From the IMG/VR virus record IMGVR_UViG_3300049170_000121, positions 1 through 49,046 of that record: a stretch of 49,046 nt of DNA; one strand, given 5' to 3'. Each line of letters opens with the position of its first letter. Position 1 is the stretch's first letter. A model generated the notes under the pieces. The model was not told the DNA's origin and ran no database searches. It was given only the letters and a program-made list of their open reading frames with translations. Below are positions 5,151 to 19,650 of the stretch, one piece after another. The stretch comes from a virus. Its lineage: Duplodnaviria > Caudoviricetes. The translations under genes were made by a program, and so were the position numbers.

Positions 5151-5675
5151 TCACCGCCTTGGGATGCCAAGGAACAGTGCCCGCTCCGCTTCGCGTCTCC
5201 TTGCTAGGCCGCGCATGTGCTTGCCGTTGGCATAGGTCCACCTCAAGAATTCGTCAGCAGCCCCAGCTACGTTCCCATCCCTGAATTTTCTTAGAAGGGT
5301 GGATTCCTCAAGACGGCCTTCTCCAAGATTATACGCAAAGCTCACTAGGGCGCTTTTCTCGCGGGGCTTGATCGGCACGCCGTCAACCAGCTTGTCCACG
5401 GCAGGCCCGAACCGCTCGGTTAGATCAGACAGGAGCCGCGCGTTGCATTGCGCTTGCGTCCAGACGATGCCCTTCGACACATCGGGGCCGGTCGAGCCGT
5501 AGCCGATGGTCCACGGTTTCGCGCCGGTTGCTGGATCGGGGTATGCCTGCACCAGCCCATCGGGCAGCACCTTGTGGCATCCTTCAAATTCTCGGATGAT
5601 CTTGTCGGCCTTGACCAACCAGCCATCGACAGGCGAGTCTTTCCCAAGGCCGCAAAACGCTTCCCTAATGCCCAT
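5151..5675 (-). CDS. Endolysin, GH24 lysozyme
   Basis: FEGC...AYPD...WTIGYGST catalytic region; ALVSFAYNLG; GLARRREAERALFL. Confidence 0.93.
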   Translation of the reverse strand: MGIREAFCGLGKDSPVDGWLVKADKIIREFEGCHKVLPDGLVQAYPDPATGAKPWTIGYGSTGPDVSKGIVWTQAQCNARLLSDLTERFGPAVDKLVDGVPIKPREKSALVSFAYNLGEGRLEESTLLRKFRDGNVAGAADEFLRWTYANGKHMRGLARRREAERALFLGIPRR

Positions 5676-9811: not shown

Positions 9812-9927
9812 AGATATGGCACGCCCTGCTAGTGGTTGGGCTGGTCTTCTGGCTGATCCCAACGCGGGCGCAGCGCCTTGCCCTATTTGCTTTATTGATC
9901 GGGGTCGTCTGGCCCCTCGCCTGGTGA
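9808..9927 (+). CDS. Small hydrophobic membrane protein (39 aa)
   Basis: MKIWHALLVVGLVFWLIPTRAQRLALFALLIGVVWPLAW; ATGA-coupled to previous ORF. Confidence 0.55.
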   Translation: MKIWHALLVVGLVFWLIPTRAQRLALFALLIGVVWPLAW

Positions 9928-12708
9928 AGCCGCCACGTTGCCGACTTTGGGCAGGTTGTCATTCGCCGCCCGCGTAAACAGGCCGATCTCATTGGCGATG
10001 GCCGGTTCCGCGCGGGCGATGCCCGCTAGCTTGCCGACATAAGCCCTCTGTGCTGCTGGATTAGCGGTCTTCGGAGCACCAGCCAGCCACCGCGCGAAGC
10101 GAGGCGAGGCCATCAGCTTGCCAACCGAGTACTGCGCCGCGCCGCCACCGATTGCTGCGAGTGGGTTAACCCACCACAGAAGCGGTGAGATAGCCACCTG
10201 AACGCCGATAGCCCTCGCCGTGTTTGATGTGTTTGCCGCCGCGCCCGCCTGCTTCACGCCGCGCGAGACGACCGCCAACTTGTTCAACGCATCAACCGTC
10301 TCTGGCGGAAAGGCCGCGCGGCGGGCTTGCGGGCTAAGGTTGTTCCAGTTGGTCAGGAATGTGTTGAACGAAAACCCCGTGCCATCCACAATCTCCGCCG
10401 CACCCTTTGTCGGCTGCCCCATGCGATTGATGAGTGTGGCGGCAACCGAACGTGTCTCACCCTTGGGCATGGCCTGGAACAGTTGGCGCAGCCGCGCGCC
10501 GTTGCCCGTCTTGGGGTTGGCCATATTTTCAAGCGCGGTGACAATCTGCTCGCCGCTGCGAGGGGCGTTCTTGCCAAGGATAGGTTCTAGTACATCGTCA
10601 ATGGTTTCAACGCGCTTCTTCCAGAAGGCATTGGCGGTTTTGAGCGCCCCGGCTGCGTTCTGTTTGCCTGCCGCTGCAAGGCCGTCGTACATGTCGCCAG
10701 TGGCCGCCTCCAGAATGTCTCCGAACACCTTGTCTGTGGCAGAGCCGCGCAGGCCCCGTTCGGTCAGGCTTTCACGAAGGGCGGTGCGGGTCTGGCGGAT
10801 GCCTTCAATCTCGAACTTACCCGCAGCCATCTTGTCGCGCAGGCTCTTAACGTCCTTGTAGAGTTGCCCCTCCGTGCCATCGACACTCTTGCCTAGCTTC
10901 GCCAGCCATTCGTCGGCCTTCGCCACAGCTTGCGGGAGCGGCAGAGCCTCGCCGTCAGCCATACGGTCAGCGCGGGTGTAGAGTTTGCCCCCGATCTCCG
11001 ATGTGCGCCGCGAGTAGACGTTGGCGGCCTTCCGCACGACTTCGCCGGCCTGGTCGTCGGGAAGCGCCTGTCCTGTGGCAGAGGAAATGCGGCTGCGAGC
11101 TTTGCCGCCAGCGTCCTCCATTGCGCCGACAGCCTTGGCAATCGGGGCGTCCGAAATGAAGCCCTGCCGCGCTCCTGCCGTCACTGCCCGCGACACCGGC
11201 CCGCCGGTTACAGCGGGGATCGTCGGGATGCGGAGATCGTCCGCCGACTGCTGCACCTCGGCCCCGGCCACACGAGCGGGCGAGCGGCGGTTTGCCAGCG
11301 TGTTGCCGATAGCCTGCCCTCCAACGGCGAGCGTACCGCCTGCGACTGCGCCCAGCGCGGCATTGGTCACGCTACCTTCCAGACCCTCGCCGTAGCCAAA
11401 GCCGCCAACGCCGCCGACCGTTGCGCCTTCGATGCCTGCGGAGCGGGTCATCTGTGACTGGACTGCGCCGCGCGTTACCGGAGCACCGCGAGCGGCCACG
11501 GAACGCCCGGCGGACAGTGCGTTGCCGATGCCGGAAGTGATCCGGCCAAGCCCGCCGCCGCCTGCCACCTCTGCGACGGTTCCGCCCCAGCCAAGCTTGT
11601 TGCGTGCCTGATCGATGCGGTGCTGTTCAGTGTCCCTGCCGAGTTGGTAATTGCGCTGGATACTGCCGAGACTCAGATCGCCCTTGAGCGCCCCGCTAAT
11701 AATCTGCCCAATGCCGCTGGCTTCATCAGTTAGGCCAAGCGACATGCCATGCCGGGCAAGGTCTGCAACGCCATATTCACCGGTGATGTCATTCAGGCGG
11801 TCAGCCTCATTGAGAACTGCTGGATCTTCGCCGGGCGCTGCCGCGAAGTGGCCCAACTGATTGCCTTGAGCATCGAACCCGGTCCCGCCCTGCGGCCCGA
11901 GCGGGTTCCCCTGCTCGTCGTAAACCTCTTGGCCCCACAGGCCGCGCGACTGCTCGGCGGACGTGGCGTCGCCTTCCTCGCCAGCTTGCGGCAGCTGGAT
12001 GCCCGAAACGGCGGCCATCCGAGACTTCACCTGCTCCCACGCGGCAAGCCTTTGTGCGGCGGGAACGGTCGGATCGGCAATGTTGCCAACACGCTCAACG
12101 ATAAACTCGCGGTCGCTGTTCGAGATTTGCGAACCGAGGCTGCCCCCCGTCATCTGCAACGTGAGGTCGCTGGCAATCGTCTTGAGCTTGCCGATGTCCT
12201 CCATGCCATCGGTGGCGTCGCCGGTAACGAAGCCATAAGCACTTGCCGCCGCGCTTTGAAGCCCACCGCTGGTGGAGCCGCGAATGAGATCGGCAACGGG
12301 ATCGTCCCCCGTCTCGATGTTCACCCCCGCAGCCGTCAGTAGCGAAAGAGCGTTCCTCGCGTTCTCGGAGGACTTATCGGCCTTACTTCCGGGGATCACA
12401 GAAGCGCTGCCGTCCGGGTTGAGGCGATACCCTTCCCCTGGGTTCGGCTTGCCGGGCTTGGGCTGGTTCTGCGGCGCGGTCGGATCAGCGGGACCGCCGG
12501 GGATGGGCAACAGCCCGCCGGGGCCGCCCTGATATCCACTCGGCGGATCATACCGAGGCTCGGGCTTCGGCGTCCCCGGAATGAATGCAGGGGGGCTGCT
12601 TGTGGTGGGCGCTGCGGGCGCGGCTCCGCCAGCGGGGGTCCACTGGCCGTTGCGGAGGACGAGCTTTTCGCCTGTCTGCGGATTGGTCGCGGTAGGTTCA
12701 AGCGCCAT
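9892..12708 (-). CDS. Large DNA ejection / internal virion protein
   Basis: 938 aa, Ala/Gly-rich and helical; ATNPQTGEKLVLRNGQW N-terminus; last of three genes at the P22 7/20/16 position. Confidence 0.8.
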   Translation of the reverse strand: MALEPTATNPQTGEKLVLRNGQWTPAGGAAPAAPTTSSPPAFIPGTPKPEPRYDPPSGYQGGPGGLLPIPGGPADPTAPQNQPKPGKPNPGEGYRLNPDGSASVIPGSKADKSSENARNALSLLTAAGVNIETGDDPVADLIRGSTSGGLQSAAASAYGFVTGDATDGMEDIGKLKTIASDLTLQMTGGSLGSQISNSDREFIVERVGNIADPTVPAAQRLAAWEQVKSRMAAVSGIQLPQAGEEGDATSAEQSRGLWGQEVYDEQGNPLGPQGGTGFDAQGNQLGHFAAAPGEDPAVLNEADRLNDITGEYGVADLARHGMSLGLTDEASGIGQIISGALKGDLSLGSIQRNYQLGRDTEQHRIDQARNKLGWGGTVAEVAGGGGLGRITSGIGNALSAGRSVAARGAPVTRGAVQSQMTRSAGIEGATVGGVGGFGYGEGLEGSVTNAALGAVAGGTLAVGGQAIGNTLANRRSPARVAGAEVQQSADDLRIPTIPAVTGGPVSRAVTAGARQGFISDAPIAKAVGAMEDAGGKARSRISSATGQALPDDQAGEVVRKAANVYSRRTSEIGGKLYTRADRMADGEALPLPQAVAKADEWLAKLGKSVDGTEGQLYKDVKSLRDKMAAGKFEIEGIRQTRTALRESLTERGLRGSATDKVFGDILEAATGDMYDGLAAAGKQNAAGALKTANAFWKKRVETIDDVLEPILGKNAPRSGEQIVTALENMANPKTGNGARLRQLFQAMPKGETRSVAATLINRMGQPTKGAAEIVDGTGFSFNTFLTNWNNLSPQARRAAFPPETVDALNKLAVVSRGVKQAGAAANTSNTARAIGVQVAISPLLWWVNPLAAIGGGAAQYSVGKLMASPRFARWLAGAPKTANPAAQRAYVGKLAGIARAEPAIANEIGLFTRAANDNLPKVGNVAASPGEGPDDPDQ

Positions 12709-12948
12709 TTAGCGGCCCCCTGGCTCGATATGGACGTGGTCGCCCTCGTTGATGACTTGCAGGCCGGGGTTCAGGCGGCGCAGTTCGGCTGCGTAGGCGT
12801 TCATGCTCATCCCGCGCGGCGGGACACTATCGACCGCCAGCGGCTTGCCATCGACACCCTTGCGAGTGTGGTAGCTGTTAGGAACGCCGCCGACGCGCTT
12901 GTTGTGTTCCGGCGTCCGGTAGGTTGATGTCACGCCACTTTGGTTCAC
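12709..12948 (-). CDS. Peptidase M15A-like Zn peptidoglycan hydrolase domain (possibly a frameshift extension of the upstream gene)
   Basis: TSTYRTPEHNKRVGGVPNSYH...AVD...DHVHIE; no well-spaced SD. Confidence 0.8.
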   Translation of the reverse strand: MNQSGVTSTYRTPEHNKRVGGVPNSYHTRKGVDGKPLAVDSVPPRGMSMNAYAAELRRLNPGLQVINEGDHVHIEPGGR

Positions 12949-12952
12949 GCCT

Positions 12953-13693
12953 CTAGGGGCGAAAGGTGCCCGGCGCGGACGCCGGACCTCCTTCATCCAG
13001 AACGAACCCCGGAGGTGGGGCCGGGATGTTGCCAAAGTTCTGCGGCTGACCGCCCTCTTGGATTGGCTGCCCGAACTGGAACCCAGCAAGGCCAGCCTCG
13101 CCAATCGGCGTGTATTTCGGCTGCTGGAACTGCTGATATTCCTTCATCTGCCCAGCCTTGGCGACCACCGAGTTGAGTGTTTGCGGATCGTACTGACCGA
13201 GGAATTGCCCCAGCCCGTCGAAGCCCATCTGCATTCCCTGCTGGATGTAGGCGTCCCATGCGGCGGGCTGTTGCTCGGGCGGAAGCTGCACAATCTGAAA
13301 GGCCGCGTTGGAGATGAACTCGTAACCCTCCAGCGCCTTGTCTGCCTGCCGGTCGTCCAGTTTGATGGCTGTGTCGAGATCCACGCCCCACAGCCCTAGG
13401 AGCGCCCCCTTGTCGCCCTGTGCGGCCCTTGCGGCGAGCTGGCGGGTCTGTTCCTCAAGCTGCGTCTTGCGCACCGTTTCGGCCCGCTCGTTTTCGTACT
13501 GGCCGAGCTTGATCCCCATTTCAGGATCGTGCTGCGCAACCATCGCCGCGCCTTGTGCACTCGGGTTCTGTGCATACTGCGCCAGCGCGTTACGGGTTTC
13601 CAGCTTGCGGCGCTGGTCCATGCCTTCCTGGAACGATTGCTGGATGCCCTGCCCGATGGCGTTGGGGTTCATCAGCCCCGCGAGCACGTTCAT
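12953..13693 (-). CDS. DNA ejection / internal virion protein
   Basis: Gln/Ala-rich helical protein, PPPGFVLDE motif, synteny. Confidence 0.75.
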   Translation of the reverse strand: MNVLAGLMNPNAIGQGIQQSFQEGMDQRRKLETRNALAQYAQNPSAQGAAMVAQHDPEMGIKLGQYENERAETVRKTQLEEQTRQLAARAAQGDKGALLGLWGVDLDTAIKLDDRQADKALEGYEFISNAAFQIVQLPPEQQPAAWDAYIQQGMQMGFDGLGQFLGQYDPQTLNSVVAKAGQMKEYQQFQQPKYTPIGEAGLAGFQFGQPIQEGGQPQNFGNIPAPPPGFVLDEGGPASAPGTFRP

Positions 13694-14607
13694 AGTCCGG
13701 TCCCCCGCAGGTTCATTCCGAAGCCGGCAGCGCCGCCGCCCATTCCGCCCATTCCGCCCCCGTAAGCGAGGCCGCCCATGACCCCGCCCAGCGCGTTGCC
13801 GATGCCCCCGATCATGGCGTTGGAATTGTTGGCCCGTGCCACCGCTGAATTGGCGAGGTTGTTGCCCTGCGCGATGGCGAGATTGCCGGTGTTGTTGGCA
13901 TAATTGGTGTTGACGCCGGACATCGCATTGGCCGCCCCGGCGGTGAGCATCTGCTGGTCGCCAAGATAGCCCATGTAATTGCCGAACTCGGCGCTCGCCA
14001 TGCCCTGCCGGTAGTCATCGAGGCCTTTCAGGGCAGCGCCCGATTGCAGCACGCCCGCCCCGGCGAACCCGGAGTTAAGCGCGTCCATGCCTTCGTTCAC
14101 CCGGAACTGGTAGCCGGTGGAATTGCGGAACATGTCGAACGCATCGCTGGCGGCGGCCTGCGGGCTTTGCCCCGGCTGTGCCGCTTGCGCCTGCTGTTGC
14201 TGCTGTGTGGGCTGCTGCTGCATCGGCACACCGCGCGGAACCGTGTTCCAGCCCATCCTGTTGAAGCCCGGTTCGCCGCCCAGCGCGTTGAACGGGGATT
14301 GTTGCATCGGCTGCTGCGTCGGGAATGAATGCTGCGCCGCCTGTTGCGGAGCCTGCACCCCGCCAAGCCCAAGCAGGGCGTTGCGCGCGTTGATCGCGGG
14401 CATCCCGGCGTTGTAGATCGGCTGTTGCAACGCAAGGTTCTGCTGCCGCGCCTCGCGCTGTGCGGCGACCGCCTCGGTGTTGGATTGCGTCTGTGCCGCC
14501 GTGGCCTTGTTGATCGCCTTGCTGTTCTTGGAGCCGGCGATAGCACTGCCAACCCCGCCAATCACGGCAGAGCCGATCAGGGCGGTGCCCATGCTAATTC
14601 CTACCAT
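13690..14607 (-). CDS. DNA transfer (pilot) protein, P22 gp7-like
   Basis: Gly-rich hydrophobic N-terminus; STGYQFR..EG...SGAALK motif; synteny. Confidence 0.8.
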   Translation of the reverse strand: MVGISMGTALIGSAVIGGVGSAIAGSKNSKAINKATAAQTQSNTEAVAAQREARQQNLALQQPIYNAGMPAINARNALLGLGGVQAPQQAAQHSFPTQQPMQQSPFNALGGEPGFNRMGWNTVPRGVPMQQQPTQQQQQAQAAQPGQSPQAAASDAFDMFRNSTGYQFRVNEGMDALNSGFAGAGVLQSGAALKGLDDYRQGMASAEFGNYMGYLGDQQMLTAGAANAMSGVNTNYANNTGNLAIAQGNNLANSAVARANNSNAMIGGIGNALGGVMGGLAYGGGMGGMGGGAAGFGMNLRGTGL

Positions 14608-15973: not shown

Positions 15974-17325
15974 CAGCGCCCCCCATAGCTTTCGTTAATC
16001 AAAACGTCAGATACCCTGAATGGGACAGGAGCGGTGACCCTGAACTCAGCCAGGAAGCCGGGGCGCGAGGCCATCCCGCAGGCGCGCCATTGCACCTTCG
16101 TGCGGTAATTGCCCTGCTCTCCCAGCGCCGTGGCGCGCCAGTTGCCCCAGGTCTGCCCGGCGTCTCGCGAGACCCGCATTTCCACTTGTGGGTCGGTGTA
16201 ATCACCCGTCAGGAACGGGGTCTGTCCGACATTGCTGCGAAGCTGGACGTTGGCGATGTTCAACCCGCCCGAATTGATCGGTGCGCCGGCCCGAAACCTG
16301 CGCTCCAGCACCCCACCAAGATCCTCGTGGCCCGTGCCCCACGCCAGCGTCTTGCCGTCCAGCGACGACCCGAACACCCCATCAGCGTAGCATTGCGGTA
16401 TCCAGTTGGTTTCGCCGTGCGAGGCAAGTTCGCCCCACATCTGCGAGCGCAGCCCCCACGCATGGGTTTCGTCGTCCAGGCGCAGGCACAGGAACTCCAG
16501 CCCGCCAAGCGTATAAGTGAACAGCGCAACGCTGGTGGCGGCCTCGATCTGCTCCTCAAGCCCCGGATTGGAGATGATGTTGTTTTCGTTGGTGAAGCAC
16601 ACCTGATTGTCGTTGGTCACCCAGGCGAAGGTCGGGCCGATAGCGGCCATACACCCGGTCGCCTTGACGCCCTTTTCAATGACCATGCCCTCAAGCGGGC
16701 GGAACGGAAGGTCGCTGTCCCCGGTGTTGGGCCAGAACTCGATGGTTTCCTTGCCGCCCAAGATCAGCATGTCGTCAAGGAACAGCCCGTCCACCAGCGC
16801 ATCGGGCGAGCTTTCCGCCGTGGCGAAGTCGAGCGCGTCCACCGTCGCGCCGAGCGATGGCGTCCAGTAAAACTTGCCGGTGCCATCGCGCAGGAAGATA
16901 AACCGCGAGGCCCCGGTGATGACTTTGGTGACGTTGGCGCTGTCGGGAAACGACACGTTCGCCAGCGTCGTGCCGTCATAGTAGCGCGGCGTCCCGCCCG
17001 CTGTCGCCATGATGCCGATTTCGTTTCCGGTGATGGACACCGGGCCGCTGCCCGTGATCGTGCCGAGCGAAGTGGTGCCGCTGTAGATATTGCCGGCAGA
17101 CACGCCGATCAGTGCACCCGACAGCACGCCGTCTTTCTGGAACAGCGCCTTGACCGGCCCTGCACCCATGTCCGCCGAGCGATCCGACAGGCCGGGCCGT
17201 GATTGCAACACAACCTGGCGGTCTTCGGTCGGCGCTTCCTCGGCAAACATATTGATGACGGGAAGGCTCGGGAGGTCACCCCGTGCCCGTGCGTAGGATG
17301 ACAGGCCCCATTGAAGCTGTGCCAT
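15973..17325 (-). CDS. Tail hub / packaged-DNA stabilization protein, P22 gp10-like
   Basis: DALDFATAESSPD, TIEFW..TG, SRDAGQTW, GEQGNYRTKVQWRACG. Confidence 0.88.
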   Translation of the reverse strand: MAQLQWGLSSYARARGDLPSLPVINMFAEEAPTEDRQVVLQSRPGLSDRSADMGAGPVKALFQKDGVLSGALIGVSAGNIYSGTTSLGTITGSGPVSITGNEIGIMATAGGTPRYYDGTTLANVSFPDSANVTKVITGASRFIFLRDGTGKFYWTPSLGATVDALDFATAESSPDALVDGLFLDDMLILGGKETIEFWPNTGDSDLPFRPLEGMVIEKGVKATGCMAAIGPTFAWVTNDNQVCFTNENNIISNPGLEEQIEAATSVALFTYTLGGLEFLCLRLDDETHAWGLRSQMWGELASHGETNWIPQCYADGVFGSSLDGKTLAWGTGHEDLGGVLERRFRAGAPINSGGLNIANVQLRSNVGQTPFLTGDYTDPQVEMRVSRDAGQTWGNWRATALGEQGNYRTKVQWRACGMASRPGFLAEFRVTAPVPFRVSDVLINESYGGR

Positions 17326-17393
17326 ATCTACGCGTCCCGATCCGGGAAGTGTTTCAGCATGACTTCTCCCGGTGTTCGTGGCAGATTGAGCGG

Positions 17394-18023
17394 ATGTTCA
17401 ACAACCGGCTCAGTCCCCAGCGCGGCGACTATCACTTCCGGCTTCCCATCGGCGGCAAGCGGATTGTCTATGCTTACATTCGCAAGAATGGATGCTCGGC
17501 CTTTAAGGTGGCTGCCGGTCTTCCCGGTGCCCACATCGGTCAGCTCGTAGATGCGTACAAATGGCGACCGTGGCAGCGCAGCGACGCCGCGATCTTCGTC
17601 TATCGCGACCCCGTGGAACGCCTGGTCAGCCTGTACCGGAACAAGGTCATCGACAACGTGGAGAACGGCGATATTCTTCGCGCTTACCGCAACACGATGG
17701 GCGAGGAGCCGACCACCTTCGAGCGGTTTGTCGAGTTCGCTATCCAGGGCCGCGACCCGCATTGCATTCCGCAGCGCAAGCACTTGAAGCCGATCCGCTA
17801 TACCCATGCGATCCGGCTTGACCGGCTTTACGAAAGCATGGCCGAGATCGTTGGTGAGGAAGCGGCAGAGCCGTTCCGCCACCGCGTCAACCCCTCGGTG
17901 CCCACCCCTGTCCATGTGACCGACCGGGCCAGAGAACTTGTCGTCCGGCGCTACGCTTGTGACTACCGCATGATCCGGAGGATAGAACGTGAGCACGGAA
18001 GAACTGCAACTCGCGCTGCTTGA
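17394..18023 (+). CDS. Sulfotransferase (Sulfotransfer_2-like); start uncertain (alternative GTG 17349)
   Basis: YAYIRKNGCSAFK (5'-PSB-like), FVYRDPVERLVSLY (3'-PB), DPHCIPQ, HRVNPS, RYACDY. Confidence 0.8.
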   Translation: MFNNRLSPQRGDYHFRLPIGGKRIVYAYIRKNGCSAFKVAAGLPGAHIGQLVDAYKWRPWQRSDAAIFVYRDPVERLVSLYRNKVIDNVENGDILRAYRNTMGEEPTTFERFVEFAIQGRDPHCIPQRKHLKPIRYTHAIRLDRLYESMAEIVGEEAAEPFRHRVNPSVPTPVHVTDRARELVVRRYACDYRMIRRIEREHGRTATRAA

Positions 18024-18198
18024 ACTCGGCCTCACGCCGAACAAGCTGGCCGACGAATTTCAATACAATCACGCCGAACGCGAACTGCTGCGGCGATGCG
18101 TTGCCGGGCTTGCCGTCCCCCCACCCAGCCTCGTGCGCGGCATAGATAACCTGCTTTGGCAACAGGGTTGGCTTGCTTGCCCAGCGAACCCTGGATGA
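17989..18198 (+). CDS. Small putative HTH protein
   Basis: EELQLALLELGLTPNKLA...LRRCVAG..VPP XRE-like pattern; GGAGG SD. Confidence 0.55.
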   Translation: MSTEELQLALLELGLTPNKLADEFQYNHAERELLRRCVAGLAVPPPSLVRGIDNLLWQQGWLACPANPG

Positions 18199-19650
18199 TT
18201 AATGCCCTGAGTGCTCGACGGTAATAGTGACCTGCGAGCCTTCGGTGATCGGCCCAAAGGCGTCCTTGCTCGCCCCGGTCGAAAAGTCGTAAAACGAGAC
18301 GGGCGGATCAGCCGACATATTAGGGTCGGGCGAGGCCGCGCTTGTGCTGAGCCGTTGAGTGCTGCTGATCGTGCTGTTATCGCAGTCCGCCGTGGTTCCC
18401 GCCGTCCCGTTGATCTCCACGCCGATGCACTTGTTGAGCCAGGTTTCCATGACAACGCTGTCCCACCCATTCATCCAGTCGAAGTGAAAGGTCGAGCCGC
18501 GCGGGTGCCAGTCGGCTTCGGCCCTGCCGTGGCGGTCGGACGAGAGGTAGAGTTTGGAGCGCCAGGCGTGGCCGCTTATGCCGGGCCGCCCGTTGGCGAA
18601 CTCGGTCTTGACCTCGAACTGCGGCACGCGCCACCAGCCATCGGGGCACTTGTTGGCGGTGACGGCCTGGTCAGACGAATGGATAATGGGATAGCGAAAA
18701 TGATCGCGCCCGCCGGTGCTGGTCAGGTTGTGCCCATCCCAACAGGCCGGTGCGTTCATGTTGGCGATGAGGACTTTGTCGGTGCCCTCGCAGGCCCCAC
18801 CCCACGGATCGGTGCCATCTTCATTGACCAGTTGCCGGAGGTAGCCGAGAGCATTAGGGCTCTCATCGGCGGTGTTCCCAACAGCTGGGGAGACAAGGAC
18901 GTTTGCGTCGTTGAAGCAGGCCCAGCCCGTCCAACCGTTGTACCGGCGACCGTCGGCCTCCTTGAGCCAGCCCTCGTTGTCAGGGATCTCGGTTTGCCGC
19001 GCGGTGTTCAGCCGGTCGGACGGATCAACGCCGCCGATGAAGGCCAGCCCGCGCAGCAGGCGATACAGCGGTGGCGACATCGACGTGTGCGACATTTGGT
19101 AATAGAACGTGACGTTGTTCGGCTTGAGCGGGACGGACACCGTCGCCGTTAGCTCGTACATTAGCGCCGGTTCCCAATAGCCGGTGGCGTTGACCGGGCC
19201 GCCGGCACAGGCCGACTTGGGATTGTTGCGCAGCGTCGCGTAAGTCGAGTTGTGATTGGTCGAAAAGTTACCGATGAAGTCGTGGTGGTGCGCCGAACCC
19301 GCTTGGCTGAAATAAAGGATCGGGTCGTCGTTAGCGAAATGGGTGTGGTTGCAGGTGAAGCGCGCCTTGGGAGAGACAGAGCTGGTGTTGTAGGAGACCC
19401 CGCCCTCAAGCCACTGGCTGCGGGTGTAGTTGGTGCTCTCGTCGATGATTGCAGGCTCGTAATCGAGCGCCACCGGATCGCCGCCTTGGGTCGAGTTCGA
19501 TACTTCCGGGTGGCGGTCCACGCCGTCACCGACAACCGGGGTGGTGGTCCAGGTCGGCGTGCGTTCAGCGGTGGTCCACGATTGCGCGGCGGCGACTTGC
19601 CCGCCTAACAGTGCGAGGAGCGCCAGCGTTGATGCGATTAAGCGAGCCAT
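18199..19650 (-). CDS. Secreted DUF1996-domain protein
   Basis: Signal peptide ending AAA|QS; RFTC.....DDPI....SAHHHDFIGN, TGYWEPAL, PACWDG.NL, FHFDWMNGWD. Confidence 0.85.
   Translation of the reverse strand: MARLIASTLALLALLGGQVAAAQSWTTAERTPTWTTTPVVGDGVDRHPEVSNSTQGGDPVALDYEPAIIDESTNYTRSQWLEGGVSYNTSSVSPKARFTCNHTHFANDDPILYFSQAGSAHHHDFIGNFSTNHNSTYATLRNNPKSACAGGPVNATGYWEPALMYELTATVSVPLKPNNVTFYYQMSHTSMSPPLYRLLRGLAFIGGVDPSDRLNTARQTEIPDNEGWLKEADGRRYNGWTGWACFNDANVLVSPAVGNTADESPNALGYLRQLVNEDGTDPWGGACEGTDKVLIANMNAPACWDGHNLTSTGGRDHFRYPIIHSSDQAVTANKCPDGWWRVPQFEVKTEFANGRPGISGHAWRSKLYLSSDRHGRAEADWHPRGSTFHFDWMNGWDSVVMETWLNKCIGVEINGTAGTTADCDNSTISSTQRLSTSAASPDPNMSADPPVSFYDFSTGASKDAFGPITEGSQVTITVEHSGH

Follow-up and report, generated by a model that had tools for sequence, protein, structure and literature searches.

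A conserved RNA cassette close to the 3' end of a phage gene very probably drives a programmed +1 frameshift at a UUU_C site, which would yield two forms of the product, of 246 and 327 aa, the long one carrying a predicted M15-type peptidase. The gene belongs to a short-tailed, P22/Pam1-like phage whose genes are read on the minus strand of the window (the whole stretch of viral DNA analysed here, 49,046 nt). The order is terminase, portal, capsid, adaptor, head closure, an acetyltransferase-like gene, three ejection-position genes (305, 246 and 938 aa) and tail spike, and the lysozyme gene stands apart at 5151-5675.

The 246-aa gene is found at the place of P22 gp20, second of three genes after the head-closure and gp7-like genes. 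In tblastn comparisons its product matched Pam1 gp14 (30%, E 6e-16; labelled 'DNA/protein translocase of injectosome' by the depositors) and Pan3 gp12 (27%, E 3e-4; labelled 'ejection protein'), both encoded at the same genome place. The product had no Pfam or PHROG match of its own, its family profile matched no PDB sequence, and its Atlas lead, Inj_translocase at 0.86, lay below the acceptance bar. Gene order and the depositors' annotations indicate that this is probably an ejection-protein gene. In the 938-aa gene, neither a Pfam or PHROG match nor a hydrolase domain was detected. A homolog of the gp7-like gene was present 1.1-1.6 kb upstream of the cassette in 25/40 cassette loci. Elsewhere in the structural module, a 483-aa gene with a DUF1996 domain (E 6.6e-22; 18199-19650, minus strand) lies between the adaptor and head-closure genes, and a coding-like frame is found between structural genes at 17328-18044 (minus strand) and 17283-18023 (plus strand); the plus-strand ORF (246 aa) appears by eye to be of the sulfotransferase type and is oriented opposite to its neighbours.

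The zero frame of the 246-aa gene ends with TTT CGC CCC TAG (TAG at 12955-12953), and the +1 frame is open across the junction down to a TAA at 12711-12709 that abuts the ATG of the 938-aa gene. The first-pass annotation had described this CGC CCC TAG end and an open +1 frame leading into an M15-type Zn peptidase, and both statements agree with our translation and searches: 12957-12712 matched Peptidase_M15_3 (PF08291) above the Pfam cut-off (E 6.9e-7; 29.8 bits, cut-off 23.2) and also matched an endolysin PHROG. The zinc-site motif of M15 peptidases consists of His, Asp and His-x-His. The extension contains SYH, D and HVH, with H30, D43, H74 and H76 invariant in 12/12 aligned relatives; the His-to-Asp spacing is H-x12-D in the window and H-x6-D in five relatives. 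A structure model of the +1-frame domain (pLDDT 87.7) aligned to the Zn DD-peptidase 1lbu with Z 4.0, an rmsd of 4.4 over 74 aligned residues and 24% identity, a score tied with unrelated HAD domains at Z 4.5. Foldseek with this model returned no match at E<=0.001, the peptidase profile had no match among PDB sequences, and its sole matches in cultured phages were to small gokushovirus-like records. Taken from its sequence, the 83-aa extension is likely to be an M15-type peptidoglycan peptidase. The long form would measure 327 aa whether the shift took place at UUU_C or at CCC-UAG. It should be noted that the junction does not reflect an indel, for which the first-pass annotation had suggested a check: a contig of run X1 (depth 45, perhaps the window's own source) is identical to the window across 12500-13684, and the junction is also covered, gap-free, by a contig from run X2. 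Short variant contigs of run X1 branch at the start of the 246-aa gene (window 13655-13700), so the sample may contain a related phage differing there.

Table 1. Features of the gene, its neighbours and the cassette (window positions, except where a locus is named)
Feature	Position	Strand	Basis or remark
Upstream neighbour, gp7-like ejection gene	13690-14607	-	phrog_598 'DNA ejection', E 1.6e-18
246-aa gene (zero-frame product)	12953-13693	-	second of three in ejection cluster, P22 gp20-like position
GGAGG, Shine-Dalgarno-like word within coding sequence	12987-12991	-	sequence
Hairpin, 6-bp core, UCCG loop, extendable to 8 bp	12970-12985	-	fold; covariation
5-nt spacer, core stem to Phe codon (4 nt if U-G pair forms)	12965-12969	-	sequence, alignment
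UUU_C, inferred +1 shift site (Phe244)	12961-12964	-	TTT+pyrimidine conservation
+1-frame extension, 83 aa, M15-type Zn peptidase domain (predicted)	12709-12960	-	Pfam, PHROG, motif, model
CCC TAG, end of short form, first-proposed site	12953-12958	-	CCC-stop in 14/93 loci
Two GTG codons in +1 frame, possible re-initiation sites, no well-spaced SD	12931-12948	-	not conserved
Downstream neighbour, 938-aa gene, gp16-like position	9892-12708	-	same order in Pam1, Pan3
Sibling C_CCU_UUY cassette, cargo in -1 frame	L053:1969-2010, L054, L059, L062, L208, L212, L215		
Sibling C_CCU_UUY cassette, cargo in frame with immediate -1 stop	L026, L210		

Three elements upstream of the junction had been overlooked in the first reading, namely GGAGG, a hairpin and TTT-C (Table 1). 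To describe their conservation, loci were taken from the peptidase and from DNA patterns because the alignment of the 246-aa protein was too variable for a locus search (a search of viral contigs with this protein gave no confirmed locus), and the sample is consequently biased to carriers of the cassette or of the peptidase. The peptidase alignment provided 80 M15-relative loci in addition to the window. A script placed 34 of these in the +1 class, and 33 of them have the same arrangement: GGAG(G), then a hairpin of 7-8 bp, a spacer of 4-5 nt and a zero-frame TTT followed by C or T. The remaining +1-class locus, L101, is without the cassette, as are L092 and L095. The script permitted TTC at the Phe position and no locus used it.

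Two DNA patterns derived from the loci found earlier were then applied to viral contigs; they held only GGAGG and the hairpin, since selecting for TTT was to be avoided. They returned 93 loci, 85 of them distinct. TTT stands exactly 25 nt after GGAGG in 84/85, with C or T as the next base in all 84, and the sole exception is a glycine-rich chance match. The coding sequence that follows the cassette, called here the cargo, is in the +1 frame in 76 of these 84 loci (L193 being reassigned by hand), in frame in 7 and cut by the contig end in 1. When all distinct +1 loci were pooled and de-duplicated, TTT followed by C or T was found in 93/93, compared with TTT at 114/395 and TTT plus pyrimidine at 27/395 of the background Phe codons of the same genes; the loci are related and these counts overstate their independence. 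The pooled count left out duplicates, L040 and L064 (whose motif matches were taken to be spurious, the actual cassette of L040 being found upstream of the match), L026 (handled as -1 type), L175 and L202 (Gly-rich chance matches) and L185 (cut), while L071 and L104 were outside the scored set. The loci resemble a UUU_Ynn site in their zero-frame UUU followed by a pyrimidine and in the conserved protein-coding +1 frame from there on. In 77/93 loci, a zero-frame stop comes no more than five codons from the Phe codon.

The upstream elements are conserved as well. GGAG is invariant in 28/28 aligned cassettes, in loci chosen by a search that asked for RGAGR. The two stem registers were aligned separately: in one, 112/112 cells are paired with two-sided changes in 7/8 pairs, and in the register of the window 92.9% are paired with two-sided changes in 6/7 pairs, compared with at most 62.5% and 48% in slid controls, the kinship of the loci inflating the covariation counts. 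The gaps between GGAGG and TTT (22, 25 and 28 nt) keep codon phase, as expected of a signal read by the ribosome. The hairpin region folds with a z of -2.5 for a 61-nt stretch, and in free RNA the predicted fold of the window pairs GGAGG with the shift site. Rfam gave no match at the gathering score across window 12500-13800, the two weak matches being far below their cut-offs. Within the window a loose cassette pattern occurs at chance level (6 vs 5.7) and the covariance model matches only this cassette, where it matches by construction. At the protein level, 44/57 short homologs finish with GG-x6-9-F and then R, P, Q, L or no further residue, endings that TTT plus pyrimidine could encode in every case; the cassette is absent from the other 13/57 and from Pan3 and is therefore not universal. 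Among the upstream ORFs, 35/106 matched the window family profile at E<1e-3. The two isoforms of 246 and 327 aa that had been anticipated are borne out by this comparison as far as sequence goes, the +1 junction being conserved, and the junction peptide would likely read ...GTF-APRG... and not ...GTFRP-RG.... Two other candidates were considered. Gly-Gly as a peptide signal is disfavoured, as L058 keeps GGAGG out of the Gly-Gly frame, and a -2 shift was rejected as the E-site codon varies and offers no re-pairing.

The first-pass annotation had located the slip at CCC-UAG, by likeness to structural genes of SPP1 and Listeria phage PSA; the tail-shaft genes of Listeria phages are of this type. 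CCC does stand directly before the stop in the window, and it does so in 11/33 of the nearest M15 loci, where it is the commonest last codon; CCC_UGA is moreover a used +1 site according to the accessible text of PMC5009743. However, CCC-stop is missing from 79/93 loci with the same cassette, and it is not kept where the +1 junction is kept. In seven loci of the same register (L025, L055-L058, L065 and L066), the +1 Pro is kept while the zero-frame codon has become GCC, ACC or TCC, which argues that the +1 frame is under selection upstream of CCC. Here again, contigs of close relatives in runs X2 and X3 carry a change at 12958 that converts CCC TAG to TCC TAG and is silent only in the +1 frame, although, at contig depths of 3 and 4, each of them alone could be an error. 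Nor is CCC rare in the window, with 73/223 Pro codons in nine structural genes, unlike in Listeria. At CCC-stop loci the +1 frame reads Phe-x-Pro-Arg/Ser/Lys-Gly, the Pro codon giving two C's and the T of CCC-stop and the next codon giving AG or AA, so that CCC TAG in the window likely just follows from the +1 frame coding for Ala-Pro-Arg. It is thus very unlikely that CCC-UAG is the sole or principal site in this phage, where it could still provide a minor second route.

We consider it just as unlikely that the peptidase is a separate small protein, started by translational coupling at GTG 12948 or 12933 or from a start brought near GGAGG by the hairpin, as in a split ribosome-binding site. 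GTG 12948 stands 4 nt past the stop, an ATG in the +1 frame is present at 12996 and also in the hairpin loop of a few relatives, and split ribosome-binding sites are known in T4 genes 38 and 25 (PMC3014915, from the part available). Against this, no ATG, GTG or TTG is found within the first 12 +1 codons in 40/93 loci, and no start codon with an SD-like word in 92/93. In the window, the only SD-like word near the GTGs (GAGG) ends 1 nt before the first of them, in agreement with the earlier remark that the peptidase lacks a properly spaced SD. At the place where a split site would put a start, TTT stands, and the ATG at 12996, the only nearby +1 ATG, is lost in the contigs of runs X2 and X3 through a change at 12995. 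In-frame fusions also exist, as the first-pass annotation had proposed to look for: 10/67 protein homologs are long and five of these carry PF08291. A separate start would, furthermore, leave the invariant TTT-pyrimidine unexplained. Re-initiation at GTG 12948 may serve as a side route in this phage.

Less probable still is slippage of RNA polymerase at the T run, aided by the nascent hairpin, which would make some mRNAs one base shorter. A hairpin followed by U's looks alike in both cases, and hairpin-stimulated transcriptional slippage on T5C5 is described in the text available for PMC5009743. By contrast, most of our loci have just three T's, preceded by variable bases (GGC, AAC, GGG, ACC), and TTT is always in the zero frame, with gap lengths that keep codon phase. 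Finally, although the window is a metagenome-type assembly, we give hardly any credit to an assembly error or a decayed, unused domain, given the gap-free junction in runs X1 and X2, the recurrence of the layout in 93 distinct loci and in Pam1, a cultured phage, and catalytic-type residues invariant in 12/12 aligned relatives.

The frameshift at UUU_C would serve more than one kind of cargo. Among 57 scanned loci (56/88 scan loci plus Pam1), 28 cargoes are SLT transglycosylases, 15 are M15 peptidases and 14 are unassigned. The best matches of the SLT cargo in cultured phages are to Caulobacter phages, and the domain of Jess A lies inside a 758-aa ORF. A cargo of about 107 aa that starts with NNPG-x-LR recurs in L108, L109, L113, L120, L123, L128, L141 and L189; it has no Pfam match at E<=0.01 and is possibly a third hydrolase family. 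L040:1670-2240, on the same contig as L217, has a window-type cassette followed by a 181-aa +1 cargo composed of an unassigned domain and M15, and L146 has a similar two-domain cargo in frame.

Four layouts were distinguished. In the first (93 loci), the cargo is in the +1 frame and the zero frame stops. In the second (8 loci), the same cassette precedes a cargo in frame and it is the +1 frame that stops, within four codons in 7/8; compared with a background of 0.158, this gives a p of 1.7e-5 when counted naively and of about 0.003 when counted as 4/5 lineages, grouped by eye. The third and fourth layouts share a sibling cassette that has GGAGG, a weaker stem and C_CCU_UUY, the canonical shape of a -1 heptamer. 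In the third, 7/9 distinct sequences have the cargo in the -1 frame with a zero-frame stop three codons on, and in the fourth, the other 2/9 have it in frame, the -1 frame reaching a stop in one to three codons. The sibling -1 set is small and its members are related; part of it was found with a pattern asking for CCCTTT, so the motif was selected there and the frames were not. A short and a long product are encoded in each of the layouts; this points to a ratio being kept rather than to a rare extension, and the inverted layouts suggest that both forms would be made in substantial amounts.

From the sequence, its conservation, the covariation and the cargo families, we infer the slip itself and its efficiency, the roles of the SD and hairpin, packaging and enzyme activity as follows. 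The ribosome would melt the hairpin while translating through it. Once the tRNA for Phe244 occupies the P site, the hairpin would refold just behind the E-site codon and put GGAGG at an effective spacing of about 6 nt, where it could pair with the 16S anti-SD; the SD distance, 22-28 nt when linear, falls to about 5-6 nt with the stem looped out. The resulting strain would move tRNA-Phe off UUU and onto UUC, an overlapping codon to which it is fully cognate, and decoding would resume at GCC; ribosomes that keep the frame would terminate two codons on. Virions would contain both forms, and the long one would degrade peptidoglycan while the ejection channel traverses the periplasm.

Each step has a counterpart in known systems. 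The prfB gene, which is autoregulated, shifts at CUU_U with a stop codon in the A site and an SD 3 nt away. The cassette resembles it in its internal SD upstream of a +1 site and in a P-site tRNA that would re-pair on UUY; it differs in being a UUU_Y site with a mostly sense A-site codon (CGC in 22/93 loci including the window, a stop in just 6/93), with the SD 22-28 nt away across a hairpin and not at 3 nt, and in a structural gene. The text available for PMC5009743 reports that an internal SD stimulates +1 shifts at 3 nt and -1 shifts at 9-14 nt, and that bacterial ribosomes are prone to shift +1 at UUU_Ynn even when no stop codon adjoins it, in E. coli and in Yersinia YopN-TyeA. As in those cases, the site is of four bases, an A-site stop is unneeded and two otherwise separate coding units are joined. 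By contrast, a fixed upstream SD-like word and a covarying hairpin are found here, in dozens of phage lineages and with exchangeable cargoes.

The structural protein gp17.1 of SPP1 is extended by a CCC-stop +1 frameshift. In the Listeria phages PSA, A118 and A500, tail-shaft genes shift +1 at CCC_UGA, the PSA capsid gene has a shift of its own, and Ig-like extensions are indifferent to +1, -1 or in-frame joining (PMC5009743, accessible text). In these phages, as would be the case here, a virion protein gains a further C-terminal domain through a +1 shift, whereas our site is not a Pro-stop pair, the protein is probably an internal ejection protein and the cargo is an enzyme domain. Regarding the hairpin, the parts available of two papers describe stimulation of +1 shifting by an upstream hairpin in E. 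coli lysate, only without RF2 and on a CUU-UGA site (PMC6321510), and a best action 2-5 nt from the shift site (PMC3639245). There as here a stable hairpin would refold 2-5 nt behind the site, but those are constructs made from a coronavirus attenuator; the cassette would be an instance from nature, in a bacterial virus, and with an SD alongside the hairpin. In initiation of T4 gene 38, a hairpin shortens the SD spacing from 22 to 5 nt (PMC3014915, from the part available). Likewise, in genes 38 and 25 a hairpin between the SD and the P-site codon reduces 22-27 nt to a spacing that works. In those genes the codon served is an initiating AUG, while here the P-site codon is an internal UUU.

As for the ejection channel, the available text of PMC8954989 describes T7 gp16/gp15-like ejection proteins with a fused transglycosylase, a domain that can move to a gp15/gp20-type protein, and that of a preprint (bioRxiv 10.64898/2026.09.03.749273) describes P22 gp20 as a barrel crossing the peptidoglycan layer; the word 'frameshift' is absent from the text available for both. 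A C-terminal hydrolase on some copies fits with such a barrel and such mobility. In both T7-type phages and ours an ejection protein would carry a peptidoglycan hydrolase, though in the former it is fused in frame on every copy, unlike the two forms expected here.

Beyond the frameshift itself, we tentatively propose, with somewhat less than even confidence, that the cassettes form a hitherto undescribed class of recoding signal, for which we suggest the name 'split Shine-Dalgarno ruler'. In it the refolding hairpin would set the distance between SD and P site and hence which way the ribosome slips: a long stem followed by a short spacer would give +1 at UUU_Y, and a small stem followed by a longer spacer would give -1 at C_CCU_UUY. 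With the four layouts, which are interchangeable, podophages might determine how many subunits of the ejection channel are plain and how many carry an enzyme, and might exchange one hydrolase for another at a common socket. The single parts of the cassette have precedents; no paper describing their combination or its use in ejection genes was found in a search that covered little of the subscription literature.

Natural bacterial +1 signals are few, and this one is compact and comes with natural covariation and variants of direction, which makes the joint action of an SD and an upstream hairpin in the elongating ribosome directly testable. According to the available text of PMC8954989, the gp16-type protein of P22-like phages is without a recognised hydrolase. 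The cassette points to a hidden hydrolase in such phages, which gene callers would miss or mis-start, and a cultured carrier exists in Pam1, as does an example of this in Pam1_15. In the available main and supplement text of the Pam1 virion proteomics (PMC9382816), gp14 and gp15 are not named. Pam1 carries the cassette, and its +1 frame is open from the TTT onwards, a point far ahead of where gp15 is annotated to begin: the annotated 49-codon ORF (4953-5102 in L022:4790-5102) is the tail of a 103-codon +1 frame that begins at the cassette. This frame has no Pfam match, and the SYH, D and HWH residues are present in it.
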